A stretch of 64,000 nt of DNA from the IMG/VR virus record IMGVR_UViG_3300045988_112440. One strand, 5' to 3'. This stretch comes from a virus. The notes beneath the pieces are model-generated. The model saw nothing but the letters and a program-made list of their open reading frames with translations, did no database searches and was not told where the DNA came from. Both the position numbers and the translations under genes were made by a program. Each line of letters starts with the position of its first letter. Within the stretch, counting starts at the first letter, position 1. Below, piece by piece: positions 11,162-64,000 of this stretch.

Positions 11162-11631
11162 CCCACAAGGTCATCCAGATCCTGCGTCTTGAACGTCATA
11201 ATTCGCACACGATGGTGTAAATCCATATTGTCCTCGATATTGGATGTGATTTTAAGCTGTTTGATTCCAAAAATTGTACTGCCGTGTAGTTCTTTTTCCA
11301 CAAGACCACTCAGATAGTCAACTCGTGTTGCACCACCATGGCCCTTCATTTTCATCAGCGCCTGGTTCACAATAACCCATACAGTAAGTGTGAAGTTTTC
11401 ATACCAGTCGTTGACGTTGCTTCGGTCAGTCATATTTACCTTAAAACAAATATAGCTGTGCGCTGCCTCAATCGTGTCAGGAATATGGAAGTATGGGAAG
11501 ATGTATGTATAAATCGCCTCGTCAGGCTCTTCAATGTCATCATTGCCCATCGCTTCAACAAGCCCATCAGTATTAACCAGCTTCAAGGCCAATTTGTTTT
11601 TATAATCAGTAATCAATTCACTCGTTGTCAC
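11152..11631 (-). CDS. hypothetical head-tail joining protein
   Basis: 159-aa ORF, translationally coupled on both sides. Confidence 0.6.
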   Translation of the reverse strand: MTTSELITDYKNKLALKLVNTDGLVEAMGNDDIEEPDEAIYTYIFPYFHIPDTIEAAHSYICFKVNMTDRSNVNDWYENFTLTVWVIVNQALMKMKGHGGATRVDYLSGLVEKELHGSTIFGIKQLKITSNIEDNMDLHHRVRIMTFKTQDLDDLVGCG

Positions 11632-12653
11632 AGCAAACTCACCACCTTACATTCAATGGATGCATTTGCTGTACCATCTGCATTCGTCAAAGAAATCCTA
11701 ACAGTTGCGCCGTCCATAATACTATTATTCAAAATACGAATTTTAAAAGTACCATCGTCGGCAGTCTGCGTTTCTACAAATTCCTTGAATTCCTCAAGGC
11801 AAACGAACTTCCACTTAGCAATTTCAGTAATTTCCTCGCCAGCAACACTTGTGAACATAGGAGAGAATTTTTTCCAAGAACCACCAATACGAACCTCTGG
11901 TTTTCCTACATACTTTATAGTAGCTGTCACACGAGAATCTATTTCTGATTCGTCGATTTTGTTTGGCTCAAAATAATCACAAATCATCTTCTCAGCATTA
12001 TCCGTCTTACTGTTATACTGATCCTGCCGGATGTTCAACACAAGGAACCCCTGTGTCCTACCATGCAGTTCGTAACGCTCTGTACTCTGGTCAACAGAAG
12101 TCGTAACATACGTTTTCGGCTCGCCATTGATAATTTCCAACATAAAGCGCTTATCAAGGTCAATCAGTGCGGTCTCGTCATCAAAAGGCATCTGTACTTT
12201 ATATTCACGTTGACTCAATGAAGTCATGATAATCTCCTTATTATTTGCGTAATAAGGCTTACTCAGTGTTGCCCAACGAGAGACTATCTCACCAGTAATC
12301 GGATTTTGCCATTGGATTTGACGGTTACACAGCTCCATTTTTCCACGAAGAAAAATTTCATCGTTTGGTTCAATCTCAGTTACCAGCTATTTACAATTGT
12401 AGCAGTCAACAATGTCGCCAAGATTCAAAGAATCACCAGGATAAGCCCAGATTTTCTTTTCCTTAGCAATACTATTACTGCGACTAACAACCAGCTTCTG
12501 AGGTAAACCATTCACAAGAGCATTATCCTCGTAATCAACGCTATCTTTAAAATGTGCAGCAAAATCTCGCTTTGCAAAAGCAATTTTGACATCCTTTTTG
12601 TTAGACATTTTTGCGGCACCACCAACAGCTCGTGCCCTTGTATAAAAGTCCAT
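11628..12653 (-). CDS. structural protein with one in-frame TAG (12387-12389); C-terminal Ig-like segment
   Basis: The 88-aa ORF (12387-12653) and the 236-aa ORF (11628-12338) share one frame. A single TAG plus 16 open codons separates them: ...DIVDCYNCK-TAG-LVTEIEPNDEIFLRGKMELCNRQ... No convincing RBS before the internal ATG. Confidence 0.6.
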
Positions 12654-18802: not shown

Positions 18803-20653
18803 TTAGAAGTCAATGTTAGAAATACAAATCGGCGGAGCAGTCATTGTCTCCACCGCAGACTGGCGCACTTTATCCTTACGACGTAATTCGTATAGACGAT
18901 GAGCAAGTAAAATTGCAACATAGAACCTATCATCGTGAATTTTGTTGGCAACATCGGGTGCCAAAGCATATGTTACGGTCGTATTTTCAGAGTTTGTCGT
19001 TTTCTGAATACTTGTGATCTCGTTCTTCATCAAGTCGATGTTAACCCACGCAGTCTGTTCCTCTAAGGAAAGTTCATGCGTCTTCAAAATTTCTTGACCA
19101 GTTGATTTATCCACACCGTCTACTACCTGAACATAATCTCCGCCGTTGTATTCAAGAGGGAAATGAATGACACCAAGATTCATCAGCTCAATAAATTCCT
19201 CAACCATTGCAGTGCGGAATTTACGAGGACTAATTAGACGTAGCTTATCAACAGCATCTGGGTAACGGGTATCATATCCTTCATATAATTCATGATTTGC
19301 GTCGATAAAACCACGATGTTCTGCACCTGTTTTATCAGTCCAATTGTTAAGTAAACCGTCCGCATATGTGGAAGTACCACCGCCACCAGCGCCTTGGTCA
19401 ATCATCAATCTATCAATGTACTCATAATCAGGATTTTGACCATTGTAATGTAGAATCAACTCATGTAACTGCTCAAGCTGACGATTAGAATCGAGCTTGA
19501 ATTTTTTCTCGTTCGCAAGATCAACCATGTTCACGCAATTTATAATGTCGCCACACATGCCGTTTTCTGGATCGTTATAAATGCGCATAACGCCAACAAT
19601 AGAGTTATCCATTGTGCGGGCAGGATCAAACGCAAGAATATACTGATAGTTCCTATCCCAATAAAGCTGTGGGATATACTTTCGCTCATTGCGACGAACC
19701 GTACCCCATTTGATAATCTGGTTTACGCCACCATCACGGCTTGGTCGATTATAATACTCACGCAATGCCTTCATTTTATTTGACTTTAGAGCTGCATCTA
19801 CCTTGTCTTGTGTCAATAGTGCTTTGTATGGCTTACCCTTCATATAAACTTTGATTGCAACGTCACAAATCATATCACAAACAAAATAATCTCGATCTCC
19901 TGCAATCATGCGCTTTGCAAATTGCTTGTAGTATTTATAAAAAAGCTTGTCCATCGTGTCCTGACTTGAAGCATAAACTAGCTGAGTAGGAACCTGACGA
20001 GGCTGCATTTCAGGATTATAGTCACTGTCAGTGTCAGTGACGAAATCCGTATTCTGTGTTGCAAAAGCTTCACAGACAACAATCAGTTCGTCGGAGCAGA
20101 ATGCCGCCTCATCAAAGAAAATAAGACTAGCTCGCTTGCCACGCACACCATCTGGGTTGGAGTTCAAAGTGTTAATAGAACTACCGTTATAAAACTCAAC
20201 AACATACCCGGCGGGATTATGACTAAAACCACTTTTGTTGGTTGCAGACTTTTTCGTTTCTTTCTCTGCAATATCTTGCAGACTACGGATAGACGCAGCC
20301 GTCTTACCAACACGAGTAACAATTTCCTCGATCTTATTAAATGTCTCTTTTGCCTGATCACCTACATTACTTACAATGTAAATAGACTGGTTCTCATATA
20401 ATATTGCCTTTAGGATAATGAAAACAGAACCTACAAAAGACTTGCCAAAGTTTCGACTACACGCCTAAAGAACATGACTTGCATTCCAGCTTTGTTCCAG
20501 CATATATGCCTGAGCGTCAAATAATTGGATACCCAATAAATCTCTAGCCGCAATAACAGGATTGCGCCGATAGAATGCAATCGTTGCCGCATCACACTCA
20601 TAAATCTTACGTTTTGCGGCTGTAATAATAGGCGCTCTTTGTTTCATCCTCAT
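18803..20653 (-). CDS. terL: terminase large subunit with one in-frame TAG (20465-20467)
   Basis: N-terminal ORF ends ...QSWNASHVL-TAG. The same frame continues ACSRNFGKSF (Walker A) for 100 open codons into the 454-aa ORF (LIFFDEAAF Walker B, nuclease half). No independent start for the downstream part. Confidence 0.8.
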
Positions 20654-22345: not shown

Positions 22346-22422
22346 TGGCACGCCCAGAGAGACTTCAACTCCCAAGAGGCAGATTTAGAGTCTGCTGTTT
22401 TAAGCAATTAAACTATAGGCGC
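22346..22422 (-). tRNA. suppressor tRNA, anticodon CUA (reads UAG)
   Basis: Hand-folded cloverleaf: acceptor GCGCCUA/UGGGCGU, D stem GUUU/AAAC, anticodon stem GCAGA/UCUGC, loop CU-CUA-AA, 5-nt variable loop, T stem GGGAG/CUCUC, G73, encoded CCA. Confidence 0.85.
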
Positions 22423-22486: not shown

Positions 22487-22578
22487 TGGCGCGGTCTCAG
22501 AGATTCGAACTCTGGCATCGGGTTTACCGACCTAACGGTGTTCAGGACCGTTCTCTTCAACCACTTGAGTAAGACCGC
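22487..22578 (-). tRNA. tRNA-Ser(UGA), type II with long variable arm; unusual C at position 33
   Basis: Acceptor GCGGUCU/AGACCGC, 3-bp D stem, anticodon stem ACGGU/ACCGU, loop CCUGAAC, variable arm with UCGG/CCGA stem, T arm CAGAG-UUCGAAU-CUCUG, G73, CCA encoded. Confidence 0.75.
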
Positions 22579-22773
22579 ACAATAAAACAAGCACTTATCA
22601 AACCATCCGAGCTAGTTGAATTGTTCTCGTGTCGATAAAACGCTTGTTTTAGACTTTTAAAGCTTCGCATTAACGTAGCGAAACACGATTGGCTTGGCAT
22701 TTTGCTTCTCAAAGCTACTCTGCGTCTGACTTTACAGCTTATACACGGTTGCAACCAATGACCGCTTTTGCCA

Positions 22774-22844
22774 TGCCACCTACAGGAATCGAACCCGTAT
22801 GTGAAAAATACAAATTTCCCATTCTACCATTAAATTAAGGCGGC
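22774..22844 (-). tRNA. tRNA-Thr(UGU)
   Basis: Acceptor GCCGCCU/AGGUGGC, D arm AUUU-AAUGGUA-GAAU, anticodon stem GGAAA/UUUUC, loop UU-UGU-AU, T arm ACGGG-UUCGAUU-CCUGU, A73, no encoded CCA. Confidence 0.85.
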
Positions 22845-22966
22845 ACGATAAGCTGGAGCAATCACCCCAGCCCATAGAAAAGGAGACAACAAATGATGTC
22901 CCAAGCAGACCTTGCGGTCGTACTTCTTTTTTAATTACCCACTTAAATTGGTAGGGTTTCACCGTT

Positions 22967-25914: not shown

Positions 25915-26670
25915 TCATAAATCAAACATTTTTCTATTTTGTGCGGTTTTCTCAATATTTACGTTTTTAGCGCACTTACGACAGTATTTTTGTCTGCGTC
26001 CGGTGCGAGCAACCATCTTTCCGCAACAATCACACTTGATGTACTCTTTCCCACAATACTGACTCCACAGAATACCAGCATTCTCAAAATCGTCCACAAA
26101 AATCTCATGAGGAGAATCCGGCTCTGCAATCAAAATATGGATGTTCAAGTTGTCAATCTTTTTCAAGCTGGCAAACCCAATAAAGCCAAGATTATGTAAC
26201 TCACAGATCATCTCGTTCTGTTTTTTCTCATTTGCAGATACGTTTGCCATCCTGAAAATATCAGCCGTATCTTCCGTAATCCAGTAGTTGCATTTTTCAT
26301 TAACGGCAATATGGTATTTTGCCAGACACAGCATTGTGAACATCAGGCGTTGCATCTGCTTGCTTTCAAGTGCTTGAATCTTCTCTACCTCAGCCTTTGT
26401 AATGCACACACCATCAAGTTCCACCATAGGACGACCCTTTGCAGAAGCAATTGCTTTATCAATCAGCTCTCTATCTAGAACCTTGTTATACCCTTCAAAA
26501 TGACGCAGCATATACTCGTTAAGCTTTTCTCTTACGTCATCCTTTGAGTATCCCTTATAGAAATAATACTTCGCAATATAATGCAAAACATGCCCCGCTT
26601 TCTTCCAAGGCACATCCTTCTCTAGCCATTCTTCAGCGTAAAGAACTTCATTCAATACAATCATCCGCAT
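25915..26670 (-). CDS. hypothetical protein with C-terminal zinc ribbon (possible RNAP accessory/regulator)
   Basis: 251 aa; CDCCGK..CRKC; overlaps the RNAP-like gene end by 23 nt. Confidence 0.6.
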   Translation of the reverse strand: MRMIVLNEVLYAEEWLEKDVPWKKAGHVLHYIAKYYFYKGYSKDDVREKLNEYMLRHFEGYNKVLDRELIDKAIASAKGRPMVELDGVCITKAEVEKIQALESKQMQRLMFTMLCLAKYHIAVNEKCNYWITEDTADIFRMANVSANEKKQNEMICELHNLGFIGFASLKKIDNLNIHILIAEPDSPHEIFVDDFENAGILWSQYCGKEYIKCDCCGKMVARTGRRQKYCRKCAKNVNIEKTAQNRKMFDL

Positions 26671-29431
26671 CCTCCTTGCTATTCATGTCAACCAACACAT
26701 CCTTGAAACGCTTGCCGTCATATTCAATATCGCCATTCTCATCCTGCACAAGAGAATGCACCATACCATTATGGCGTTCCAATAAACGTTTAATCAAAGT
26801 ATCATGGAACAACTCCCAGACGATTGCAATACTGGACGCATTCTTTTTACAAAGATCAAGCAGAATGTCGCAAAGCACATCGTCATTAGAACACTTATCG
26901 TGAAGATTGCGGAACATACTTTCCTGATACAGCGCAATTCGCTCCTTGCGGTCTGCGCCGGTTTCCTTATTATTATTTCCGTTACCAGAATGGATTGCGT
27001 TGCCACGAGCAAATCTCAAATAGTCCTTAAAGATAGAGCGGATGCCATAGTATTGAGAATTAGTGTATTCAACGCCATACTTGAGCGAATCATAATCAAA
27101 CTTGCGCTTTATCTTGAGTTCTTCCTCAAAATCCTCCAATTCATCCTCAACGGTCCAGCATAGGCGGTTCATAGTACAAGAGTTGATTCCGACCGGCATC
27201 CGATAAATGTAATACTGGATAACCATTTCATCCACGTCGTCCTTGACGGTCTTTTGCATAATCTCATCCAGACCGGCAAACCCATCCCACTTGATGCGCT
27301 TGCGAGCTGCGGCCACATACTGCTTATAATCACGCATCTGAGCAGGGTAGATGTAGCTCATAAAGTACGGCTTACGCCATGCGCAAATACTACTCCAAAA
27401 CTTCTTATCCTCGATAGTATCAGGATTATCATCGTCTTTAGCAGCACAAGCTTTGTTGTCATACCAATACTGCGGCATAGGTACGCAAGAAATTCCCTTT
27501 ATGCGATCAATTGTATCTTGTTGATATTTCTGGCCAGAAATAATACGATATGTAAGCTCTTTATATTCTCTACTTTCTGGCTCAAATTTACTCTGTACAT
27601 CAAACATTGTGGTGATACGATTGGTTACCTTGCCGATATCGTCACCAAATCCATTGATGTTAGATTCAATGAAATCCTGCTCGGTTGGAACTTTCTTTTC
27701 ACCTTTTTTCTGAGCGCAAAGAATTACAGTCTCGTTTCTCCATTTATCAAGGAGAATTCTATTGTCTGTACTGAAAATAAGATCGCCATCCCAATCCATT
27801 CCATCTAGTGCAGCACACGTATTATCAAACGCACTTACGATAGCCACCGTTTTAATGTAGCGATACCAATTCTTGCATTCATCACTCGAATTTAAATCTA
27901 AACACCGAATGTTTGCCATTTGACTCATCGGTGCTCTAAAGCAGGCTACCCGCTTAACATCGCGGTCGTTCCAGAATCGGCTGTAAACCTCTCCAGCTTT
28001 TAACAGTCCAGTAACTTCCATTCCAAAGATAGATTGACAAAGCGCATAAGGGTCTCCACTTGCCACTTGGAAATTCCCTCGTACTTTCACAACACCCGTT
28101 TTTGCTTGCGAAATTCGCTTTTTAATAAAGTACCGAATCCGATTCTGCACATAAGGGTCGTTAATCATTTCCGGCTCAATCATAAGAGCCTTAATATAGT
28201 CGTTTTCCAGACTGTTTATGTAATTCGGGTCATCACGCATTCCACTACCACGCAAATACAGCAACGCATCACGCCAGTCACCGCCCATGACGCCCTTGAT
28301 CTCATCCAAAGTTGGCTTCACGAGCTCATGTATCTCTTCGTTCGTAAGCTGATAGCTTTGAATAAACTGATAATTCAAGTTACGCTCTTCATCAAGCTCC
28401 AACTCACAAGTCTTTGTTACAGAGAAATGGTAGTGATTTTCCTGGCAATTCTCAAAGTAGTCCTCGCAACTATGATAACTATCCCACAACTTGAGCATCG
28501 ACCCTGTGAGAATCACCTGTACGCGATTAACATCCTTGTAGTTCCCCCAAATATCGCGTACCATGTTCTGTTTCGCTACCTTCTTAGCAAACTCGCGAAA
28601 AGGGAAAGGGAATAACATGCCTTTACAAAATGCGTTGCGTACACAAAAGCCAGATGCGGTGGATGGTAGCTTCAAATCCTCACTCCATTGCTGTGCGAGA
28701 TCGTAACTGATGAGTCCAAAACCGTCGCTTGCACAAAGCTCACAGTCCTGCTCAGGATTCTCCACCATTGTAGGTTCACCAGACACTCCGTCATCCAGAA
28801 CGATTACATGGTCTTTAAAATGCGTGAAACAATCATCTACAACAAGCACACCGTCAGGGTCAGTAACAGGAATAGATGCGGAGCAGGCGAGAGCCCTGTA
28901 GGCTTCTAGCTTTGCCGGAATGAACTCCATTCCTTTGTTACGGCCATTATCGATTCGCTTGCGGATCTCATCAATAAGACAGTCACTTACAAACACAATC
29001 GTGCTGTTCTTAACACCACCGGTAGTCCCAACCAAGCGGCGATATGTGATTCCATTGATTTTAAACCCCTTTGGAGAGCAAGCCCGGCGGTAATCATTCT
29101 TCTTATCTACTACCAGGCACATATAATCCGGCTTGAATTGAACTGCGTCCAGCTCAGTATACAGCCTCCGAATCTCCCGTCGGTTCTCTAAACAAGATGG
29201 CTCATTCCGCAACATTTTAATTCTACGCTTGATGCTCCGTGCCTTAGCCTCTGCGTCCGTAACACCATTCAACTCATCAATCCATCGTAGAACAGTGCTA
29301 TCAGCAAGCGAGATGATTTCGTGATTTCGTCTGGCTTCATCCAATGGTAGAGTTAAATCCCATTTTGTTTCAACTAGACGCTTCGTATGGATCTTAAAAA
29401 CAAACTTTTGGCAAGTTTGCTGCTTTGCCAT
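26648..29431 (-). CDS. single-subunit double-psi-beta-barrel RNA polymerase-like protein (YonO / cellular-RdRP-like)
   Basis: 927 aa; ...VACFRAPMSQMANIRCL..., then about 45-50 residues on, AALDGMDWDGDLIFS (DxDGD metal-binding loop). Confidence 0.6.
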   Translation of the reverse strand: MAKQQTCQKFVFKIHTKRLVETKWDLTLPLDEARRNHEIISLADSTVLRWIDELNGVTDAEAKARSIKRRIKMLRNEPSCLENRREIRRLYTELDAVQFKPDYMCLVVDKKNDYRRACSPKGFKINGITYRRLVGTTGGVKNSTIVFVSDCLIDEIRKRIDNGRNKGMEFIPAKLEAYRALACSASIPVTDPDGVLVVDDCFTHFKDHVIVLDDGVSGEPTMVENPEQDCELCASDGFGLISYDLAQQWSEDLKLPSTASGFCVRNAFCKGMLFPFPFREFAKKVAKQNMVRDIWGNYKDVNRVQVILTGSMLKLWDSYHSCEDYFENCQENHYHFSVTKTCELELDEERNLNYQFIQSYQLTNEEIHELVKPTLDEIKGVMGGDWRDALLYLRGSGMRDDPNYINSLENDYIKALMIEPEMINDPYVQNRIRYFIKKRISQAKTGVVKVRGNFQVASGDPYALCQSIFGMEVTGLLKAGEVYSRFWNDRDVKRVACFRAPMSQMANIRCLDLNSSDECKNWYRYIKTVAIVSAFDNTCAALDGMDWDGDLIFSTDNRILLDKWRNETVILCAQKKGEKKVPTEQDFIESNINGFGDDIGKVTNRITTMFDVQSKFEPESREYKELTYRIISGQKYQQDTIDRIKGISCVPMPQYWYDNKACAAKDDDNPDTIEDKKFWSSICAWRKPYFMSYIYPAQMRDYKQYVAAARKRIKWDGFAGLDEIMQKTVKDDVDEMVIQYYIYRMPVGINSCTMNRLCWTVEDELEDFEEELKIKRKFDYDSLKYGVEYTNSQYYGIRSIFKDYLRFARGNAIHSGNGNNNKETGADRKERIALYQESMFRNLHDKCSNDDVLCDILLDLCKKNASSIAIVWELFHDTLIKRLLERHNGMVHSLVQDENGDIEYDGKRFKDVLVDMNSKEDADDCIE

Positions 29432-29462
29432 TCGGCAGTCACCTCCATGTTCTTTTTGAACG

Positions 29463-29482
29463 TATCCTGTATTTTATAGCTA
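29463..29482 (+). promoter_or_regulatory. 20-nt conserved element copy 1 (TATCCTGTATTTTATAGCTA)
   Basis: One of 7 copies; sits about 15 nt upstream (gene sense) of the RBS of the RNAP-like gene. Confidence 0.6.
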
Positions 29483-32740: not shown

Positions 32741-32773
32741 ACTATAAACATCCTCTTGCTATCTTCTTTACAG

Positions 32774-32793
32774 TATCCTGTATTGTATAGCTA
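32774..32793 (+). promoter_or_regulatory. 20-nt conserved element copy 2 (TATCCTGTATTGTATAGCTA)
   Basis: In the divergent control region; inverted relative to copy 3, which lies 38 nt away. Confidence 0.6.
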
Positions 32794-32831
32794 TCTACAC
32801 TCATTATACCATGAGATTGCCAAAAGTTCAA

Positions 32832-32851
32832 TAGCTACATAATACAGGATG
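32832..32851 (-). promoter_or_regulatory. 20-nt conserved element copy 3 (reverse complement CATCCTGTATTATGTAGCTA)
   Basis: Inverted partner of copy 2. Confidence 0.6.
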
Positions 32852-33782
32852 CGAGTATTTCTAGTGCCTATTATAATAAGGTATATTTTGGAGAGTATTG
32901 TTCTCTATAAATGACATTTAGATACTTTGTGTGTTCTGTGTAAGCTGCCAGAGGCTACAATTATGCTTATTAAATGTGTCTGGAGTCTCTAAGGGTGCTG
33001 CTCAGATGCCAGATCAGTCTATTTATGGCGATAGGGGAGTATGGATGAGCATAAATAGGTACTTTATACTCCGAAGAATGGTCATTTTCGGTACATTTTG
33101 GGTACACATCGGGAAAACCTGCATGAATCCTAGCTTTTTCGGATTTTATTGAGCTAAAAAGGAACAAAATAAGTGGTAAAAAGATACAAATAAAAAGAAA
33201 AACTAGCCAAAATATAACGAAAATACGTTAAATTCTAGCTAGTTACCGAATGAGCTACCGATTGAAAAATAGCGATTTTAAGCCATTTTTATGTATTTTG
33301 AGTGGAAAAATGAGTGATTTGTGAGTATGTGCAGGAGAGGGTATAGGGGTGTATTTTAGGATGATTTTGTCAGGGAAATGTACCCGGGTAGGAACAGGTT
33401 AAATAGTTAGATTGAGTTGATAGGATAGATAGAGGTTGTTGTGATTGAAAGAGAATGGTATTTTTGTGGAAATTGTTGTGCAGAATGTATAGAGAGCAAG
33501 AGAAGATGAAATTCATAATTGGTAATTATGAACAAGAAAGATGTACTGGGATCTCAGCCTGCTGCCTGGAATGTCTCAAAAATGAAAAGTATCCCCCATG
33601 GGGAAAAGCCGCTTTTGTGCAAAAAGCGGTATTTGCTTTAATTGAATAAAGTGCCTGTTTTGGCACTTTCCAGGCCGGGAATTATTCCTACTTTTCCGGT
33701 ATGTTTATAGCATTGATTTTTGCCAGGAATTGAATTTGCAAATTAGTTGCATTTTCGTCGTGTTCGATATCAAAATGATATC

Positions 33783-39624: not shown

Positions 39625-39653
39625 TTGACAAAATCGGCAGTATCCTGTATTCT
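39625..39653 (+). promoter_or_regulatory. sigma-70/sigma-A-type promoter TTGACA-17-TATTCT
   Basis: -35 at 39625-39630 and -10 at 39648-39653; the -10 and spacer overlap copy 4 of the 20-nt element. Confidence 0.55.
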
Positions 39654-39660
39654 ATAGCTA
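39641..39660 (+). promoter_or_regulatory. 20-nt conserved element copy 4 (TATCCTGTATTCTATAGCTA)
   Basis: Inverted relative to copy 5, which lies 39 nt downstream. Confidence 0.6.
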
Positions 39661-39699: not shown

Positions 39700-39719
39700 T
39701 AGATATATAACACAGGATA
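39700..39719 (-). promoter_or_regulatory. 20-nt conserved element copy 5 (reverse complement TATCCTGTGTTATATATCTA)
   Basis: Ends about 10 nt before the RBS of 39742-40290. Confidence 0.6.
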
Positions 39720-39741
39720 CGCAAGAAAAGGAGATTTGACT

Positions 39742-59626: not shown

Positions 59627-60379
59627 ATGACAAGAAATGAATTGCTTGGAGCATTATGCTTTCCAGAATATAATTTTCTTCGGGAGAATGAGCATCTTGG
59701 CAAGCATATGATGTTCGTAACGGTCGGTGGCAGTCATGCTTATGGAACAAATGTTGAGGGTTCAGATCTCGACATCCGAGGGGTGGCATTAAATTCAAGA
59801 GAAGACCTTCTTGGTCTTGGTGAGTTTGAACATTATGTGGATACTCAAACTGATACTACAATCTACAGCTTTAATAAGGCTGTGAAGCTAATGTGCAGTG
59901 GAAATCCTAATATGCTGGAGCAGCTAGGGAACGCCGATGAACTCGTTATTAGCTATAATCCAATGACAAAGTTACTTATGGATAATAAAAAGCTGTTCCT
60001 GTCGAGGCGTGTAATCTATTCGTTTGGCGGTTTTGCAGGTAAGCTGATTCAGAAGGCTGATACGCTGGACAAAGATCCAATTTATCATGGCTCAAAGAAA
60101 ATGCACAAGACGGTAATGAATGTAGTTCGTGTATACCTGATGCTCTTTGACATCTTAGAAAAAGGTGAAATTAAAACCTATCGAGACAACGATCATAACT
60201 TCCTGACGCAGCTTCGCAACGGTGAATATGATTACAAAGAGATTCGTCAGCAACTGATTCCGGCCTATGAAAGCAGATTGTCAGTGGACAAGAGTGAGAC
60301 TTACCTGCCGGACAATGTTGATTGGAAGCGGGTCAACGAGCTTGTGATGACTGTAAATGAGGAGTCTTTAAAGATTTGA
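59627..60379 (+). CDS. Pol-beta-superfamily nucleotidyltransferase (RlaP/PF10127-like)
   Basis: 250 aa; VTVGGSHAYGTNVEGSDLDIRGV N-terminal nucleotidyltransferase motif. Confidence 0.6.
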   Translation: MTRNELLGALCFPEYNFLRENEHLGKHMMFVTVGGSHAYGTNVEGSDLDIRGVALNSREDLLGLGEFEHYVDTQTDTTIYSFNKAVKLMCSGNPNMLEQLGNADELVISYNPMTKLLMDNKKLFLSRRVIYSFGGFAGKLIQKADTLDKDPIYHGSKKMHKTVMNVVRVYLMLFDILEKGEIKTYRDNDHNFLTQLRNGEYDYKEIRQQLIPAYESRLSVDKSETYLPDNVDWKRVNELVMTVNEESLKI

Positions 60380-60613: not shown

Positions 60614-61228
60614 TTGTTAACAAATCGTGAGCAAAGCGTTGCTATTGTGTGTATAATGTGCCTGCTGGCAGGGAATTTAGTAATAAAAGCGTTACCGAAT
60701 ACTGAAGTTGGAGGCACATATACATATTATAATGATCAATCGGTTCATAATGTTACACAGGCAACAAAAGAAGATGAGAACGATGAACCTACAATTTTTG
60801 TAAAGAAAATCGTTGAAACGAAGGTGGTGAACTTTAGCCAGGGTAAACATGAACTCACTGATGATGAGCGTGCTCTTGCAGAGCAGATTGTTGCTTGTGA
60901 AGCAGGTGCTGACAGTTTGGAAGGCCAGATGGCCGTTGCTCAATGTCTTTATGATTCCGCTGTACTTGATGATTTAACCATCCAGCAGGTCTTTAAGAAG
61001 TATGGTTATAGTTCCTTATATAATAGGAAGGTTACAGCAGAGAATGAGCTGGCTGTCTCTATGGTGTTTGATTATGGTGCTAAAATTTCAGACAAACCTA
61101 TCCAATGGTTTGTAACCCCGACTGCAGCTCCCGGCAGTTGGCACGAGCGTGGAGCAACCTTTGCTGGACAATTTGGCGCACATAGGTTCTATTATGATTC
61201 GAAGTTGGTTGTGGATGATGCTGAGTGA
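60614..61228 (+). CDS. SleB/cell-wall-hydrolase-like protein with N-terminal membrane anchor
   Basis: 204 aa. LAEQIVACEAGADSLEGQMAVAQCLYD resembles the Hydrolase_2 (SleB) signature. The TTG start lies 20 nt after the GGAGG RBS, so the start is uncertain. Confidence 0.55.
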   Translation: MLTNREQSVAIVCIMCLLAGNLVIKALPNTEVGGTYTYYNDQSVHNVTQATKEDENDEPTIFVKKIVETKVVNFSQGKHELTDDERALAEQIVACEAGADSLEGQMAVAQCLYDSAVLDDLTIQQVFKKYGYSSLYNRKVTAENELAVSMVFDYGAKISDKPIQWFVTPTAAPGSWHERGATFAGQFGAHRFYYDSKLVVDDAE

Positions 61229-61281
61229 ATGGCGTCATCTAAAATTTTGATAAATAATACAACAAAAAGATGTGTAATATA

Positions 61282-61309
61282 TTGACTAAAACAAAAGGCT
61301 GTGTATAAT
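61282..61309 (+). promoter_or_regulatory. sigma-70/sigma-A-type promoter TTGACT-16-TATAAT (TG directly upstream of -10)
   Basis: -35 at 61282-61287 and -10 at 61304-61309. Confidence 0.55.
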
Positions 61310-61353
61310 ATATCTTGAAAGTTGTTTGTGTGAGCGGAAGGCGGTTATTCTTG

Positions 61354-61680
61354 ATGAGCGATAGAAAGGTTTTGAAAGTTATACGGGTTGATGATTTTTT
61401 AAAGTACATAAGAAAAAAGCGAGTGTGGGTCTGCTTTGTTTGTAATGGTGTGGATATTCACATGATCTGCAAAAAGATTGACGACATTGGCGTAGAGACG
61501 GGTGGGATTGTTAATGGCGTGGGGTTCTTCGGAAATGAGAGTCACATCGAGTTGCGACAAAAATGCCATGAAGTAAGGAGAATTGAACTTAGGTCTGGCT
61601 GTGCAGAGAAAGCGTATGAGATGATCTTCGATAATACTAGTGTGTTCGTATCAGAGAATCCTGAGTTGTACGGGCACTAA
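61354..61680 (+). CDS. hypothetical protein
   Basis: Start ATG 61354 preferred over the track TTG at 61315; 108 aa. Confidence 0.5.
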   Translation: MSDRKVLKVIRVDDFLKYIRKKRVWVCFVCNGVDIHMICKKIDDIGVETGGIVNGVGFFGNESHIELRQKCHEVRRIELRSGCAEKAYEMIFDNTSVFVSENPELYGH

Positions 61681-61699: not shown

Positions 61700-61728
61700 T
61701 TGACTTCTGTGATTGTATCCTGTATAAT
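61700..61728 (+). promoter_or_regulatory. sigma-70/sigma-A-type promoter TTGACT-17-TATAAT
   Basis: -35 at 61700-61705 and -10 at 61723-61728; overlaps copy 6 of the 20-nt element. Confidence 0.6.
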
Positions 61729-61735
61729 GTAGCTA
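61716..61735 (+). promoter_or_regulatory. 20-nt conserved element copy 6 (TATCCTGTATAATGTAGCTA)
   Basis: Overlaps the -10 of the promoter for the MazF-like/recombinase-like gene pair. Confidence 0.6.
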
Positions 61736-61771
61736 TGGAACGGAGCTACATCATTGTAGAGGAGAATGACT

Positions 61772-62191
61772 ATGGATAACAATATTGACCCAAAGGTCGG
61801 AGAGGTTTGGTTGGTTGATCTATCCAATGCGACAGGTCATCAGCAGCGCGGCATTCGACCGTTCGTTGTGACAAGTAACAACAAGCGTAACTTCTTCAGC
61901 CCAACAATCAAAGGGAATCCGTTATCTTCAAGAATATATAAGCGTTCTCCGGTTCATGTTCTACTCTCAAAGGAAGACTGCGAGTTCCTAGAGGTTGATA
62001 GTATCGTTCTCTGCGAAGAGACTGATACACTTAACAAAGGACAGTTCATCAAGAAACTTGGTGTCTTGTCGGAGCGTCAGATGAATATGATTGCAATGGC
62101 AAGATGCAAAGATGAACCATTTTTGCTCGCAGCATTTCTGAGCGGTGTACAACATACTATGGAATTTCAGAATTTTGCCGCATTTGCTTGA
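61772..62191 (+). CDS. MazF/PemK-family toxin-like endoribonuclease
   Basis: Start ATG 61772. KVGEVWLVDLSNATGHQQRGIRPFVVTSNN...PLSS...VDSIVLCEETDTLNKGQFIKKLGVLSERQM fits the PemK fold pattern. No obvious MazE-like partner lies directly upstream. Confidence 0.65.
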   Translation: MDNNIDPKVGEVWLVDLSNATGHQQRGIRPFVVTSNNKRNFFSPTIKGNPLSSRIYKRSPVHVLLSKEDCEFLEVDSIVLCEETDTLNKGQFIKKLGVLSERQMNMIAMARCKDEPFLLAAFLSGVQHTMEFQNFAAFA

Positions 62192-62242
62192 TTTGTTCTC
62201 AGGTTTAATGGTACACTACATAATAAGAAGGAGTGTGCCACT

Positions 62243-63169
62243 ATGCTTACTGAAGAAAAAATCAAATCTTTTGCCGAAAAGTATTCTGATAGAAGCGGTG
62301 AGTTTGTTATATCGACGCTTAACCATGTTATGGATTACGAGGCCGAGCGTGGATATGAGTTGTTTGACTTCACAAAAGATGATTTTGTAAGGATGTTTGC
62401 TAAATACAATTGGGTGAACTCAAGTCGGTCGTTCAGAAATGTAAAGTCGATAATTACAGGGTACATCAAAAGTGATGATCGAGCGAGTATGTATGACTTA
62501 GCTGAATTCTCGGAGAGCGATGTGAGTTCAGACAATATGTACGAGGACAAGTATTTTGCATCAGTTGATGAGTTTGTTGATTTCTTGGACAAGTATGAAG
62601 AACCATATCAGATTCGTATGAACGTGATTGCCGTACTGTACTGGATTGGACTTACTTCTGAAGAGGTTTCTAATCTGACAATCAACAATGTTGATTTTGA
62701 ATCATGTACTGTTCTGAATAGGACCGGTGTTGACGCAAGACTGATGAATATCATTAAGCAGTGTTATGAAATGAAACAATACGATGCTCCAAATATGGGA
62801 GGATACAGAACGTTTTATGTCATAAATGGTGATTACATCCTTCGCAAAACAGAGGATAGAACTGGTGCAGACAGTGATTCAAGAATGTCTACAAACACAA
62901 TTCATAGTTATTTCACGCGCTTGAATGATATTCTCGAAAGAAGATATCATTCAAAGGCTTTAGACCGAAGACATCTGACTAGAAACGGCGAGTATGTCAA
63001 GGTTTATAACTACTGTAAAACTCATCCAGAATTTAATCTTGCAGAACTTAGTTTCGGAAATGGTAAAGATCCTCTTGCGGACATTATCGGAAGAAAGTGC
63101 AGCAAGGTTGCCTACATTAGTTTCCGGCAAGGATACAAGGGCTGGATCGAATACTTCCACAAAAATTAA
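62243..63169 (+). CDS. degenerate tyrosine-recombinase-like protein (Arg I lost); candidate DNA-binding regulator
   Basis: 308 aa; recombinase-like layout, but box I reads WIGLTSEEVSNL (Thr in place of Arg); HLTRN retained; AAGGAG RBS. Confidence 0.5.
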   Translation: MLTEEKIKSFAEKYSDRSGEFVISTLNHVMDYEAERGYELFDFTKDDFVRMFAKYNWVNSSRSFRNVKSIITGYIKSDDRASMYDLAEFSESDVSSDNMYEDKYFASVDEFVDFLDKYEEPYQIRMNVIAVLYWIGLTSEEVSNLTINNVDFESCTVLNRTGVDARLMNIIKQCYEMKQYDAPNMGGYRTFYVINGDYILRKTEDRTGADSDSRMSTNTIHSYFTRLNDILERRYHSKALDRRHLTRNGEYVKVYNYCKTHPEFNLAELSFGNGKDPLADIIGRKCSKVAYISFRQGYKGWIEYFHKN

Positions 63170-63173
63170 AAAC

Positions 63174-63197
63174 AGGGGGCTTCGGCCCCTTGATTTT
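63174..63197 (+). terminator. rho-independent terminator
   Basis: AGGGGGC-TTCG-GCCCCTT hairpin followed by GATTTT. Confidence 0.7.
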
Positions 63198-63204
63198 AAC
63201 ATTG

Positions 63205-63224
63205 TAACTATATAACACAGGATA
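63205..63224 (-). promoter_or_regulatory. 20-nt conserved element copy 7 (reverse complement TATCCTGTGTTATATAGTTA)
   Basis: Ends about 10 nt before the RBS of the Pnkp-like gene. Confidence 0.6.
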
Positions 63225-63246
63225 CTTATTAGAAAGGGAAATGTAG

Positions 63247-64000
63247 ATGAGAACGCTTTTGCTGTTCCGTGGAGCACCAGGTTGTGGGAAGTCCACCTAT
63301 ATTAAAGAGCATAATCTTGAACAGTACGTATTGAGTGCTGATACACTTCGCCTTATGTGCCAGAGCGCACAGGAAACACCTGCCGGGCAGATGGAGATTT
63401 CTCCGCAGAATGATGATGTTGTATGGGAGATGCTTTTCAAACTGCTTGAGGTGCGTATGAGTCATGGCGAGTTTACCGTGATTGATGCAACGAATTCCAA
63501 GACGGTCGAAATGAATCGTTATAAGAATCTGGCAAAACAGTATCGTTATCGGATGTATGTTATTGACATGACTGACCTTCCGATTGAGGAATGCAAACGA
63601 AGAAACGCTCAGAGAGAATGGCTGAAGCGAGTTCCTGAAGCGGCCATTGATAAGATGTACGCTCGGTTTGCTACTCAAAAAGTTCCTTCTGGCGTGACAG
63701 TTCTTCCTTCTACTACAGATGTGATGTCCGATTTGAATTACTGTCCGAATGACTTCAACCAGTGGAAGAAGATCCATGTCATCGGTGATGTTCATGGCTG
63801 TTATACTTGTTTAAGTGAATACCTTGGCGAGATGAAGGACGACGAACTTTATATTTTCGTTGGTGATTATCTCAATCGTGGCATCGAAAACGTTGAGGTA
63901 TTCAAGTTCTTGTGTGATGTTGTAAATAACAACCGCAAGAATGTGATCCTTTTGGAAGGGAATCACGAGCGTTGGCTGAACAAGTGGGGGCATGATGAAC
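63247..64000 (+). CDS. pnkp: polynucleotide kinase-phosphatase (Pnkp-like), 5' part; runs off window end
   Basis: Not in the ORF track (no stop in window). MRTLLLFRGAPGCGKST P-loop kinase domain, then HVIGDVHG, VGDYLNRG and EGNHE calcineurin-type phosphatase motifs. Confidence 0.7.
   Translation, partial: MRTLLLFRGAPGCGKSTYIKEHNLEQYVLSADTLRLMCQSAQETPAGQMEISPQNDDVVWEMLFKLLEVRMSHGEFTVIDATNSKTVEMNRYKNLAKQYRYRMYVIDMTDLPIEECKRRNAQREWLKRVPEAAIDKMYARFATQKVPSGVTVLPSTTDVMSDLNYCPNDFNQWKKIHVIGDVHGCYTCLSEYLGEMKDDELYIFVGDYLNRGIENVEVFKFLCDVVNNNRKNVILLEGNHERWLNKWGHDE

Follow-up and report, generated by a model that had tools for sequence, protein, structure and literature searches.

The window analysed here is a stretch of 64,000 nucleotides (nt) from a virus (IMG/VR record IMGVR_UViG_3300045988_112440). 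Near its right end, between positions 61,700 and 63,224, a gene for a MazF-like toxin (hereafter mazF) is followed by a gene for a tyrosine recombinase-like protein (hereafter mrpR), and copies of a short repeated element lie in their vicinity. Our interpretation, to which we assign a probability of about 0.6, is that this region is the lysogeny-control operon of an SPbeta-like temperate phage of ~110-140 kb. Control would involve a repressor of the MrpR/SroF type, 21-bp operators, and a phage-borne MazF acting as an integral partner and supplying an activity like that of the host MazF. The evidence was computed, and consists of the family membership and fold of the putative repressor, the loss of its box-I Arg, the number and placement of the repeated elements, and the conservation of the gene pair.

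The recombinase-fold protein

The product of mrpR has 308 amino acids (aa). A word-indexed search retrieved close relatives only: 77 protein clusters at 72-92% identity, all of them metagenomic, some on contigs of up to 784 kb. In IMG/VR, at least 130 loci encode close relatives of the protein. An exhaustive profile search against 1.84 billion representatives yielded 72 proteins, mostly of 285-390 aa and 19-38% identical, and 40 of them were used for the family profile and alignment. Sufficiently distant relatives came from this exhaustive search alone, and it is for this reason that a usable profile and a confident model could be obtained. When the single sequence was searched against the PDB only noise was found, and an AlphaFold model made from the shallow alignment had a poor C-terminal half (predicted local distance difference test, pLDDT, of 59).

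The 40-sequence profile matched the MrpR/YopR chains in the PDB (8A0A, 8BJV, 8BJ6) with an E value of 1.2e-15 over essentially the full length (profile positions 1-319); XerA-type recombinases came next, at about 0.01. The Pfam domain MrpR_N_CB is matched by 30 of the 40 family members, with a best E value of 1.9e-17. An AlphaFold model based on the 40-member alignment (pLDDT 88.6; predicted template modelling score 0.71) displays the two-domain tyrosine recombinase fold, made of a core-binding and a catalytic-like domain. In a Foldseek comparison, the top seven PDB matches were all SroF, YopR or MrpR (E 3e-8 to 2e-7; TM score up to 0.61). The best was the phi3T SroF-DNA complex 9RD5 (E 3.2e-8, TM 0.61), followed by SroF-Sar (9RGL), YopR (8BJ6/8BPZ) and MrpR (8A0A). 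The lambda Int, Cre, Tn1549 Int and XerA structures appeared next at about 1e-3, some four orders of magnitude weaker. On the basis of the profile and the predicted fold, we place the 308-aa protein in the MrpR/SroF family, as a remote yet genuine member.

The motif LYWIGLTSEE places Thr138 where tyrosine recombinases have the box-I Arg. In this column none of the 40 family members has Arg; T, S, A, N, K, E, D or P are found instead. The protein gives no match to Pfam Phage_integrase and lacks the complete R-K-H-R-H/W-Y set of active tyrosine recombinases; by catalytic residues, it does not qualify as a recombinase. An H244-x-x-R247 sequence exists in the close family only, and the status of the second Arg and of the His is ambiguous. 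Two residues are shared with MrpR: Gly136, nearly invariant in the family, aligns with MrpR G136, and the invariant Tyr298 aligns with MrpR Y304. In MrpR, G136E is the heat-sensitive c2 mutation, G136 is required for stability and DNA binding, and Y304 is required for the same two properties and not for catalysis (PMC10516654, Table 3). We observed that the YopR sequence in the GenBank record of SPBc2 (AF020713; L002 19281-20258) carries Glu136 in the context FEEVSGL, and represents the c2 allele of that study.

These results agree with a previous description of the gene made from the nucleotide sequence (the sequence-only reading), which had seen a tyrosine recombinase-like layout with a replaced box-I Arg and had suggested an MrpR/YopR-like repressor. 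The comparison that it proposed, with MrpR/YopR on the one hand and Xer proteins on the other, comes out in favor of the former. A repressor role is predicted by homology, and the SPbeta-like context described below is consistent with it.

A 21-nt element at promoters

A pattern derived from the inverted repeat around the operon defined an asymmetric element of 21 nt, GTATCCTGTRTWATRTAGYTA. Seven copies with one mismatch at most are found in the 64-kb window, against 0.02 expected. A weight matrix built from the seven copies gives them scores of 31-33.5 bits, while the next best site in the 64 kb scores 10.8 bits. All seven are intergenic and lie on or adjoining promoters and 5' leaders (Table 1); the copy found upstream of a gene for a YonO-type RNA polymerase overlaps a minus-strand promoter-like site (TTTATA-16-TAAAAT). 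Because their flanks are not conserved from copy to copy, the unit is 21 bp long and asymmetric. Among 33 distinct related sequences, conservation of the copy at 61715 is 98% or higher, and the 9 nt just upstream vary. In close relatives, the copy at 63205 has a conserved core, ACAGGATAC, followed by 21 variable nt.

In SPbeta, MrpR binds a repeated element known as SPBRE at ten promoters, among which are those of yonP (located before yonO), of aimR and of yopM, with which the MrpR operon begins (PMC10516654). The copies that we located in the SPbeta record read roughly ACAAATACAAAAAATATGTATATAA, and several are found directly upstream of ribosome-binding sites in the orientation of the gene, among them those of yonP-yonO and yopM. 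In phi3T, the SroF box is an asymmetric sequence of 26 bp that a DNA-clamping monomer reads almost base by base (bioRxiv 10.1101/2025.11.27.690993). By analogy, and in view of its distribution, the 21-bp element is probably the operator bound by the 308-aa repressor. The sequence-only reading had already conceived the element as an SPBRE-like operator, and computational support for this prediction is provided by its placement at the promoter of the repressor operon and before the yonO-type gene, as SPBRE in SPbeta.

The same reading described the gene pair as bracketed by two copies of a 20-nt element. The two copies do exist, in inverted orientation and with a length of 21 nt. The term "bracketed" turned out to be an overstatement: the left copy sits on the -10 of the mazF promoter, which predicts autoregulation, and the right copy lies past the operon terminator, before the next gene, an RNA-repair gene that it probably controls. 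Most likely, the copies serve two separate transcription units.

Another conceivable function for the 21-nt element is that of a phage-specific promoter or transcription-start element, used for instance by the YonO-type or a modified host polymerase, in which case the recombinase-like protein would have some other role. In favor of such a function, the element contains -10-like hexamers both ways (TATAAT or TATTCT forward, TAnAAT reverse), and three copies are found 21-30 nt upstream of a start codon with a fixed orientation. However, the long block of leftward genes that occupies 1-26 kb, a region in which late promoters dependent on YonO are to be expected, contains no copy, and one copy precedes the yonO-type gene itself. 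Two copies, oriented the other way from those three, coincide with canonical TTGACx-17 sigma-70 promoters, and the head-to-head pairs found around one promoter suit an operator better. Furthermore, the repeats found at equivalent places differ among lineages whose repressors differ, as described in the next section. We consider a promoter function improbable.

Conservation of the mazF-mrpR pair in related phages

Close relatives were compared using 80 IMG/VR loci. The products of mazF and mrpR, an open reading frame (ORF) directly upstream of mazF that we call ORF X, and both local copies of the element, the latter at the same positions, are kept in 80 out of 80. The orientation of the cassette relative to ORF X and to the downstream gene is also the same in all 80, and about half of the loci show a further copy of the element 3-5 kb downstream.

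The constant orientation is relevant to the idea that the recombinase-like protein catalyzes site-specific recombination, with the inverted copies at 61715 and 63205 as the sites between which a mazF-recombinase cassette would be inverted. It is true that inverted repeats flank a segment encoding a recombinase-fold protein, that the nucleophile-equivalent Tyr298 is conserved, and that the close family has the H244-x-x-R247 spacing. Yet Thr138 replaces the box-I Arg, which none of 40 relatives has, and MrpR keeps the same Tyr and does not recombine DNA (PMC10516654). In addition, five more copies of the element are located elsewhere, at promoters. An invertible cassette is very unlikely, and we discarded it in view of the missing catalytic residues and the single orientation found in 80 related genomes.

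The survey was extended to ten independent lineages, to which we were led by distant homologues of the repressor or by diverged homologues of MazF. Relevant findings are the following:

(i). A PemK gene is located in the same operon as an MrpR-like gene in 10/10 lineages. In nine of them (the window, L084, L086, L088, L089, L091, L092, L093 and L094) it encodes 133-149 aa and lies immediately upstream of the MrpR-like gene. The tenth, L095 (804-3596), has a PemK gene (133 aa), then a gene for a 452-aa YopQ-like protein with a DGQHR motif, and then a gene for an MrpR_N_CB protein. The 452-aa protein is weakly similar to SPbeta YopQ (E 2e-4), and the gene order resembles a transitional stage between mazF-mrpR and the yopQ-yopR order found in SPbeta.

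(ii). Among the eight lineages compared, pairwise identity is 58-82% for MazF and 22-42% for the repressor.

(iii). Lineages with divergent repressors have a different repeat of their own, present both in the promoter region of mazF and in the spacer downstream of mrpR. The repeats are TTTGTTATTATATA in L092 (14/14 matches) and TTG(G/T)CTAACAAAAT in L091 (13/14), and in both cases the observed value was reached by 0/200 shuffles. In L084, L086 and L088, lineage-specific repeats with 12/14 matches were detected, a value reached by 13-20 of 200 shuffles; in L093 no convincing repeat was found (11/14, reached by 91/200). A third copy is present in L086 in front of a YorF gene. L084, L086 and L092 share two traits with the window: overlap of the promoter copy with the -10, and an inverted orientation of this copy with respect to the downstream one. 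Co-evolution of repressor and operator would be expected to leave such a pattern, which is no proof of which protein binds.

(iv). Searches of 50,697 GenBank phages by tblastn and megablast retrieved nothing related to the repressor or to the region, and none of the cultured phages in GenBank carries a pair made of MazF and an MrpR-like protein. A host search among GTDB representative genomes gave no confirmed locus. In the literature searched, we found no description of a phage-encoded MazF paired with an MrpR/SroF repressor.

Altogether, the conserved pairing suggests that MazF is a built-in part of this type of lysis-lysogeny switch.

The MazF-like protein

The sequence-only reading recognized a clear PemK/MazF pattern at 61772-62191, and all comparisons bear it out. 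The product matches Pfam PemK_toxin (PF02452) with an E value of 1.7e-19 and 70.5 bits (cut-off 23.1), PHROG 1936 ("MazF-like growth inhibitor"), and the solved structures of Staphylococcus aureus and Bacillus subtilis MazF in the PDB (E 3.5e-14 to 7.5e-11). An alternative ATG exists at 61766. Spacing from the ribosome-binding site GAGGAGA is better for the ATG at 61772, which also agrees with the 139 aa annotated for close homologues. In an alignment of five lineages, Arg31 is invariant, and Ser54 of the window is replaced by Thr in the other four. We take these residues to be the equivalents of the catalytic R25 and T48 of B. subtilis MazF, a mapping that agrees with the alignment to S. aureus MazF. 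The retention of Arg31 and Ser/Thr54 makes the protein plausibly active as an endoribonuclease, and it is closest to the B. subtilis/S. aureus type. It extends ~20 residues beyond the end of either of these enzymes, and the tail contains a motif, DEPFLxxAFLxGVxxTxxFxxF, that is invariant in the five lineages aligned. The tail of the L095 protein can still be aligned, at 36% overall identity.

Several observations on mazF may be added. In one of the 80 related loci (L021, 3668-3949) the MazF match spans 94 of ~140 residues, and the gene may be disrupted. The best match in a cultured phage is found in Psychrobacillus phage Perkons, which was rejected as a further example of the pair: a nearby 328-aa ORF41 is not MrpR-like. 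For the 5' leader of mazF, no folding beyond that of shuffled sequence was detected (z = 0.65). At 61728-61752, the 3' part of the operator in the mazF promoter, TGTAGCT, is complementary to AGCTACA located 9 nt downstream, and a second small hairpin, CTACA-TCAT-TGTAG, abuts the mazF ribosome-binding site and contains UACAU.

The constant association of the two genes raises the question of whether they form a type II toxin-antitoxin pair in reversed order. The recombinase-fold protein would then repress the operon and also neutralize MazF by binding, perhaps at the C-terminal tail. The pair might serve for prophage addiction, abortive infection or superinfection exclusion, and an antirepressor that stripped the repressor from DNA would free MazF too. 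Besides the conservation of the pair in all ten lineages, this proposal has in its favor the absence of a MazE-like gene from Pfam, PHROG and PDB comparisons of ORF X, the location of an operator over the operon promoter, as in autoregulated toxin-antitoxin operons, and the extra conserved segment at the C terminus of MazF as a possible interaction surface. Divergence, however, is very unequal in the eight pairs compared, given the identities listed above (the MazF tail included). A conserved MazF-binding surface is not evident on the repressor, in which the few family-wide residues match structural or DNA-binding positions of MrpR. Moreover, the 452-aa YopQ-like gene separates the two genes in L095, and phi3T AimX, which binds MazF, does not bind the repressor phi3T_97 (PMC10769878). 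In our opinion, a toxin-antitoxin relationship between MazF and the repressor is unlikely.

ORF X and the region upstream of mazF

The remark in the sequence-only reading that no MazE-like gene lies directly upstream of mazF withstands closer inspection. ORF X gives no MazE, AbrB or RHH match in Pfam or PHROGs, and neither the single sequence nor a profile finds a relative of solved structure in the PDB. In 10/10 lineages examined an ORF of 89-127 aa is found upstream of MazF. Pairwise similarity of its product among eight lineages is weak and recurrent (BLASTP E 4e-7 to 0.03), as befits a fast-evolving gene.

One may consider that ORF X encodes either a cognate, fast-evolving antitoxin of MazF or a small regulator similar to AimX, YosL or Sar; the functional unit would be X-MazF-repressor, and X would decide the activity of MazF. 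The constant position directly upstream of MazF is the canonical one for an antitoxin, a C-terminal Y-x-M-x-F pattern recurs in 4/5 aligned lineages on top of the weak similarity, no terminator is predicted from X to mazF, and a divergent helix-turn-helix gene is found upstream in three lineages. Against it, X shows no detectable sequence relation to MazE, AimX, YosL or Sar and is far more divergent than MazF. In addition, the X-mazF spacer measures 81-140 nt and contains a promoter-like TTGAC -35 in several lineages, so that the arrangement is not a tight operon. We regard an antitoxin or regulator function of ORF X as doubtful, if conceivable. The two antitoxin models, based on the repressor and on ORF X, are both compatible with the lysogeny-control operon that we favor.

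ORF X has a strong promoter of its own (TTGACT-16-TATAAT, 61282-61309). Around it, direct repeats, ACAAAAAGATGTGTAATATAT and ACAAAAGGCTGTGTATAATATAT, are found at about 61262-61282 and 61291-61313; they may be the site for a second regulator, distinct from the 21-nt element. The gene divergently upstream of ORF X in three lineages is a small HTH_3 gene (L084 6636-6854, L093 2543-2806 and L094 1619-1840, all on the minus strand); it resembles SPbeta yopS, which adjoins the antirepressor gene. At that place the window has no HTH_3 gene. Among the early genes just upstream of ORF X, the window encodes a 204-aa protein (60614-61228, plus strand) with a weak cell-wall-hydrolase (Hydrolase_2) signal and a match to PHROG 18750.

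Operon layout and the mazF-mrpR spacer

A sigma-70-type promoter precedes mazF, and a TTGAC-type -35 hexamer, read by eye from the spacers, is found at the equivalent place in several other lineages. The gap between mazF and mrpR is 51 nt long and has no predicted terminator, and an intrinsic terminator follows mrpR (Table 1). It is plausible from this layout that mazF and mrpR are co-transcribed.

The gap contains a conserved motif, nearly invariant in 21 distinct close relatives. A related sequence, TGGTAT(C/T)CT(T)TACATAWWAAG, is present in 8/8 adjacent-gene lineages compared, whose repressors are merely 22-42% identical. The motif is not an operator, because repressors and their operators differ between lineages while the motif stays. 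One reading that fits is a weak extended -10 promoter, which would permit that the repressor is made without MazF. Alternatively, the motif might be a MazF cleavage site by virtue of its UACAU. MazF cleaves RNA at UACAU in both B. subtilis and S. aureus. The motif is mentioned once in PMC10769878. The mazF ORF is devoid of TACAT in 5/5 lineages, which is marginally unusual according to our estimate.

Table 1. Features of the proposed lysogeny-control region and related sites in the 64,000-nt window
Feature	Position	Strand	Remarks
ORF X, candidate antitoxin or antirepressor	61354..61680	+	108 aa; always the gene immediately before mazF
Sigma-70-type promoter of the mazF-mrpR operon	61700..61728	+	TTGACT-17-TATAAT; 11/12 consensus matches
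Element copy overlapping the -10 of the mazF promoter	61715..61735	+	Zero mismatches; predicted autoregulation site
mazF, MazF/PemK-family endoribonuclease	61772..62191	+	Pfam, PHROG and PDB matches; activity predicted
Conserved spacer motif between mazF and mrpR	62209..62227	+	TGGTACACTACATAATAAG; extended -10 reading TGnTAnnnT; contains TACAT
mrpR, MrpR/SroF(YopR)-family repressor	62243..63169	+	308 aa; integrase fold, catalytically degenerate; profile and AlphaFold/Foldseek; repressor role predicted
Intrinsic terminator ending the mazF-mrpR operon	63174..63190	+	GC-rich; AGGGGGCTTCGGCCCCT then T-rich tail
Element copy after the operon terminator	63205..63225	-	Zero mismatches; 21 nt before the start codon (ATG) of the following gene
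Polynucleotide kinase/phosphatase/RNA ligase gene (start), cut by the window end	63247..64000	+	Pfam AAA_33 E 2.9e-24, Metallophos E 1e-12; PHROG 8238 "RNA ligase" E 2.5e-91
YonO-like single-subunit RNA polymerase	26648..29431	-	927 aa; BLASTP vs SPbeta YonO E 2e-26; Pfam RdRP E 7.5e-15; predicted repression target
Element copy upstream of the YonO-type RNA polymerase gene	29462..29482	+	Pattern match; 30 nt upstream of the ATG (gene on minus strand)
Element copy in divergent early-control region	32773..32793	+	Pattern match; directly downstream of leftward extended -10 promoter
Leftward promoter between two gene arms	32831..32803	-	TTGAAC-17-TATAAT with upstream TG; flanked by the 32773 and 32832 copies
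Element copy abutting the -35 of the leftward promoter	32832..32852	-	Head-to-head partner of 32773, 59 bp start to start
Element copy overlapping the -10 of an early TTGACA-17-TATTCT promoter	39640..39660	+	Pattern match
Element copy in 5' leader	39700..39720	-	21 nt upstream of ATG 39742; head-to-head partner of 39640

A model for the switch

In phi3T and SPbeta, host MazF favors lysogeny: it degrades most phage transcripts and spares the sro operon, which contains sroF (PMC10769878; bioRxiv 10.1101/2025.11.27.690993). We propose that phage MazF would provide the mRNA-interferase activity that SPbeta and phi3T take from the host. Upon infection, the strong promoter would be unrepressed, and a burst of MazF and repressor would follow; MazF would damp lytic expression while the repressor builds up. 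The repressor, probably clamping as a monomer onto each asymmetric 21-bp box by analogy with phi3T SroF, would then occupy its operators and turn off early promoters, the YonO polymerase gene (and with it the genes transcribed by YonO) and its own strong promoter. Closure of the operator-covered promoter would end MazF synthesis, and in lysogens the weak extended -10 promoter of the spacer would sustain the repressor. DNA binding, the activity and specificity of MazF, its pro-lysogeny role and the internal promoter are the predicted components of this scheme.

Certain observations weigh against the model or one of its parts:

(i). The 308-aa sequence alone scores below the curated cut-off of Pfam MrpR_N_CB (E 5.4e-4, 21 bits; cut-off 27), it gave no match to MrpR_C_cat in the Pfam scan, and hhalign of the shallow alignment against YopR gave a non-significant probability of 0.7%. 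Since single-sequence scores fall below the cut-offs, family membership rests on the deeper profile and the predicted fold.

(ii). Overlap with a good sigma-70 promoter is limited to some of the copies, and the -10-like hexamers present in the element in either direction would permit a promoter role for the element itself.

(iii). Contrary to what the model predicts, in the mazF-mrpR transcript of the window UACAU is not depleted (5 sites, about 2 expected), so that, if this MazF cuts UACAU, there is no sign of the repressor mRNA being spared.

(iv). The analysis recognized no neutralizer of MazF, and no AimR or AimP was recognized in the window.

A more ambitious synthesis can be envisaged in which a phage MazF with a C-terminal extension would be an ancestral, integral component of SroF/MrpR switches, and the Bacillus SPbeta group a derived condition, with the function outsourced to host MazF. 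MazF would cut its own bicistronic mRNA at the UACAU of the spacer, just upstream of the ribosome-binding site of the repressor gene, and would thus uncouple repressor from toxin synthesis. The tail would be a built-in regulatory or antitoxin-like segment, and the kinase/phosphatase/ligase could reseal MazF-cut RNAs at prophage induction. If so, RNA cleavage would be a reversible part of the switch. Taken as a whole, we find this synthesis quite unlikely.

Phage context and RNA-repair neighbors

Related IMG/VR sequences measure 110-140 kb, near the 134 kb of SPbeta, and genes for YorF, YorH, DnaB and PolIII-alpha are found near the operon in relatives. Judging from gene content, the phage is SPbeta-like, because it has a YonO homologue and its relatives carry YorF and YorH genes. 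A 389-aa protein encoded next to the divergent operator region was considered as a candidate AimR and rejected, as it has no AimR, Pfam or PDB match.

The gene that follows the operon encodes a kinase/phosphatase/ligase, and its position makes operator control likely. A fused gene of this kind (kinase, phosphatase and T4-type RNA ligase) is found after the mrpR-like gene in three lineages: the window, L086 (9063-11309) and L092 (5091-7355); in L088 (2501-3867) the fusion is split into two genes. The RNA ends made by MazF, 2',3'-cyclic phosphate and 5'-OH, are substrates of kinase/phosphatase/ligase enzymes. An RlaP-type nucleotidyltransferase gene is located upstream of mazF-mrpR (59627-60379, plus strand), and RNA-repair genes are found on both sides of the operon.

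The window also contains three tRNA genes on the minus strand (22346-22422, 22487-22578 and 22773-22845). One has the anticodon CTA, which reads the amber codon (tRNA-Pyl according to ARAGORN), and the others are tRNA-Ser(TGA) and tRNA-Thr(TGT). The 59 larger ORFs of the window end in TAA (31) or TGA (28) and never in TAG, which suggests that TAG is avoided or recoded in this phage. TAG read-through merges a few ORFs, such as 18803-20653 and 11628-12653, and is not conclusive.

Comparison with known systems

Recognition of the MrpR/SroF integrase-fold repressors dates from as late as 2023-2025, and Bacillus phages of the SPbeta group are the sole phages in which they have been studied; there, the link with MazF goes through the host toxin-antitoxin system. 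The window protein shares with MrpR, YopR and SroF (PDB 8A0A, 8BJ6, 8BPZ, 9RD5, 9RGL; Pfam PF22822, PF22823) a two-domain integrase fold with an incomplete catalytic set, the conserved Gly (G136) and Tyr (Y304), and the location of the repressor gene at the end of an operon whose promoter bears the repeated element. It differs in that identity is about 13-18% in structural alignments. By these profile and model comparisons, the repressor is a new and very divergent member of the family, and its operator sequence is new. The element resembles SPBRE and the phi3T box in length, asymmetry, copy number and positions, including the site before the YonO polymerase gene, but is unrelated in sequence to either. 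Recombinases such as lambda Int, Cre, XerA and Tn1549 Int have in common with the family the core-binding and catalytic-domain fold (Foldseek E about 1e-3) and the C-terminal Tyr. Unlike them, the family lacks the box-I Arg, the window protein gives no Pfam Phage_integrase match, and each site is one asymmetric box in place of two half-sites paired about a crossover spacer. For transcription factors derived from recombinases, both the known sequence space and the diversity of operators are widened.

With regard to gene content, the phages resemble SPbeta and phi3T, which are of about 130 kb and have YonO, YorF and YorH-type genes. The SPbeta operon is yopMNOPQR, whereas here mazF and the repressor gene are preceded by ORF X; no arbitrium genes were recognized in the window, and the source is a group of uncultured metagenomic phages and not Bacillus. 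The pair likewise differs from canonical mazEF/pemIK modules. The PemK fold, the catalytic Arg and Ser/Thr and an operator over the operon promoter are common traits. Here, however, an upstream MazE is missing, the downstream partner is a 308-aa integrase-fold protein predicted to bind DNA and with further sites across the genome, and the pair occurs in a single clade of large phages only. As far as we found, the phage-borne MazF partner, its C-terminal tail and the X-MazF-repressor synteny are undescribed. ORF X, MazF and the repressor, together with the 21-bp operator, would make a self-contained two- or three-gene module.

The closest functional parallel is the host MazEF of phi3T and SPbeta, with its network of AimX, YosL and phi3T_93: in both cases an endoribonuclease of the MazF family is tied, here by prediction, to a switch based on an SroF-type repressor. 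The differences are that the mazF gene described here is a phage gene of the repressor operon, that its product has a conserved C-terminal extension, and that no homologue of MazE, AimX, YosL or YopN was recognized. Across very deep divergence, a repressor of this same type is hard-wired to a phage MazF in a clade of SPbeta-like phages that is widespread and uncultured. The question of why MazF is part of the switch has been raised in the arbitrium/SPbeta field, and our findings bear on it: the pairing provides independent evolutionary evidence that MazF activity belongs to the switch and is not a peculiarity of B. subtilis.

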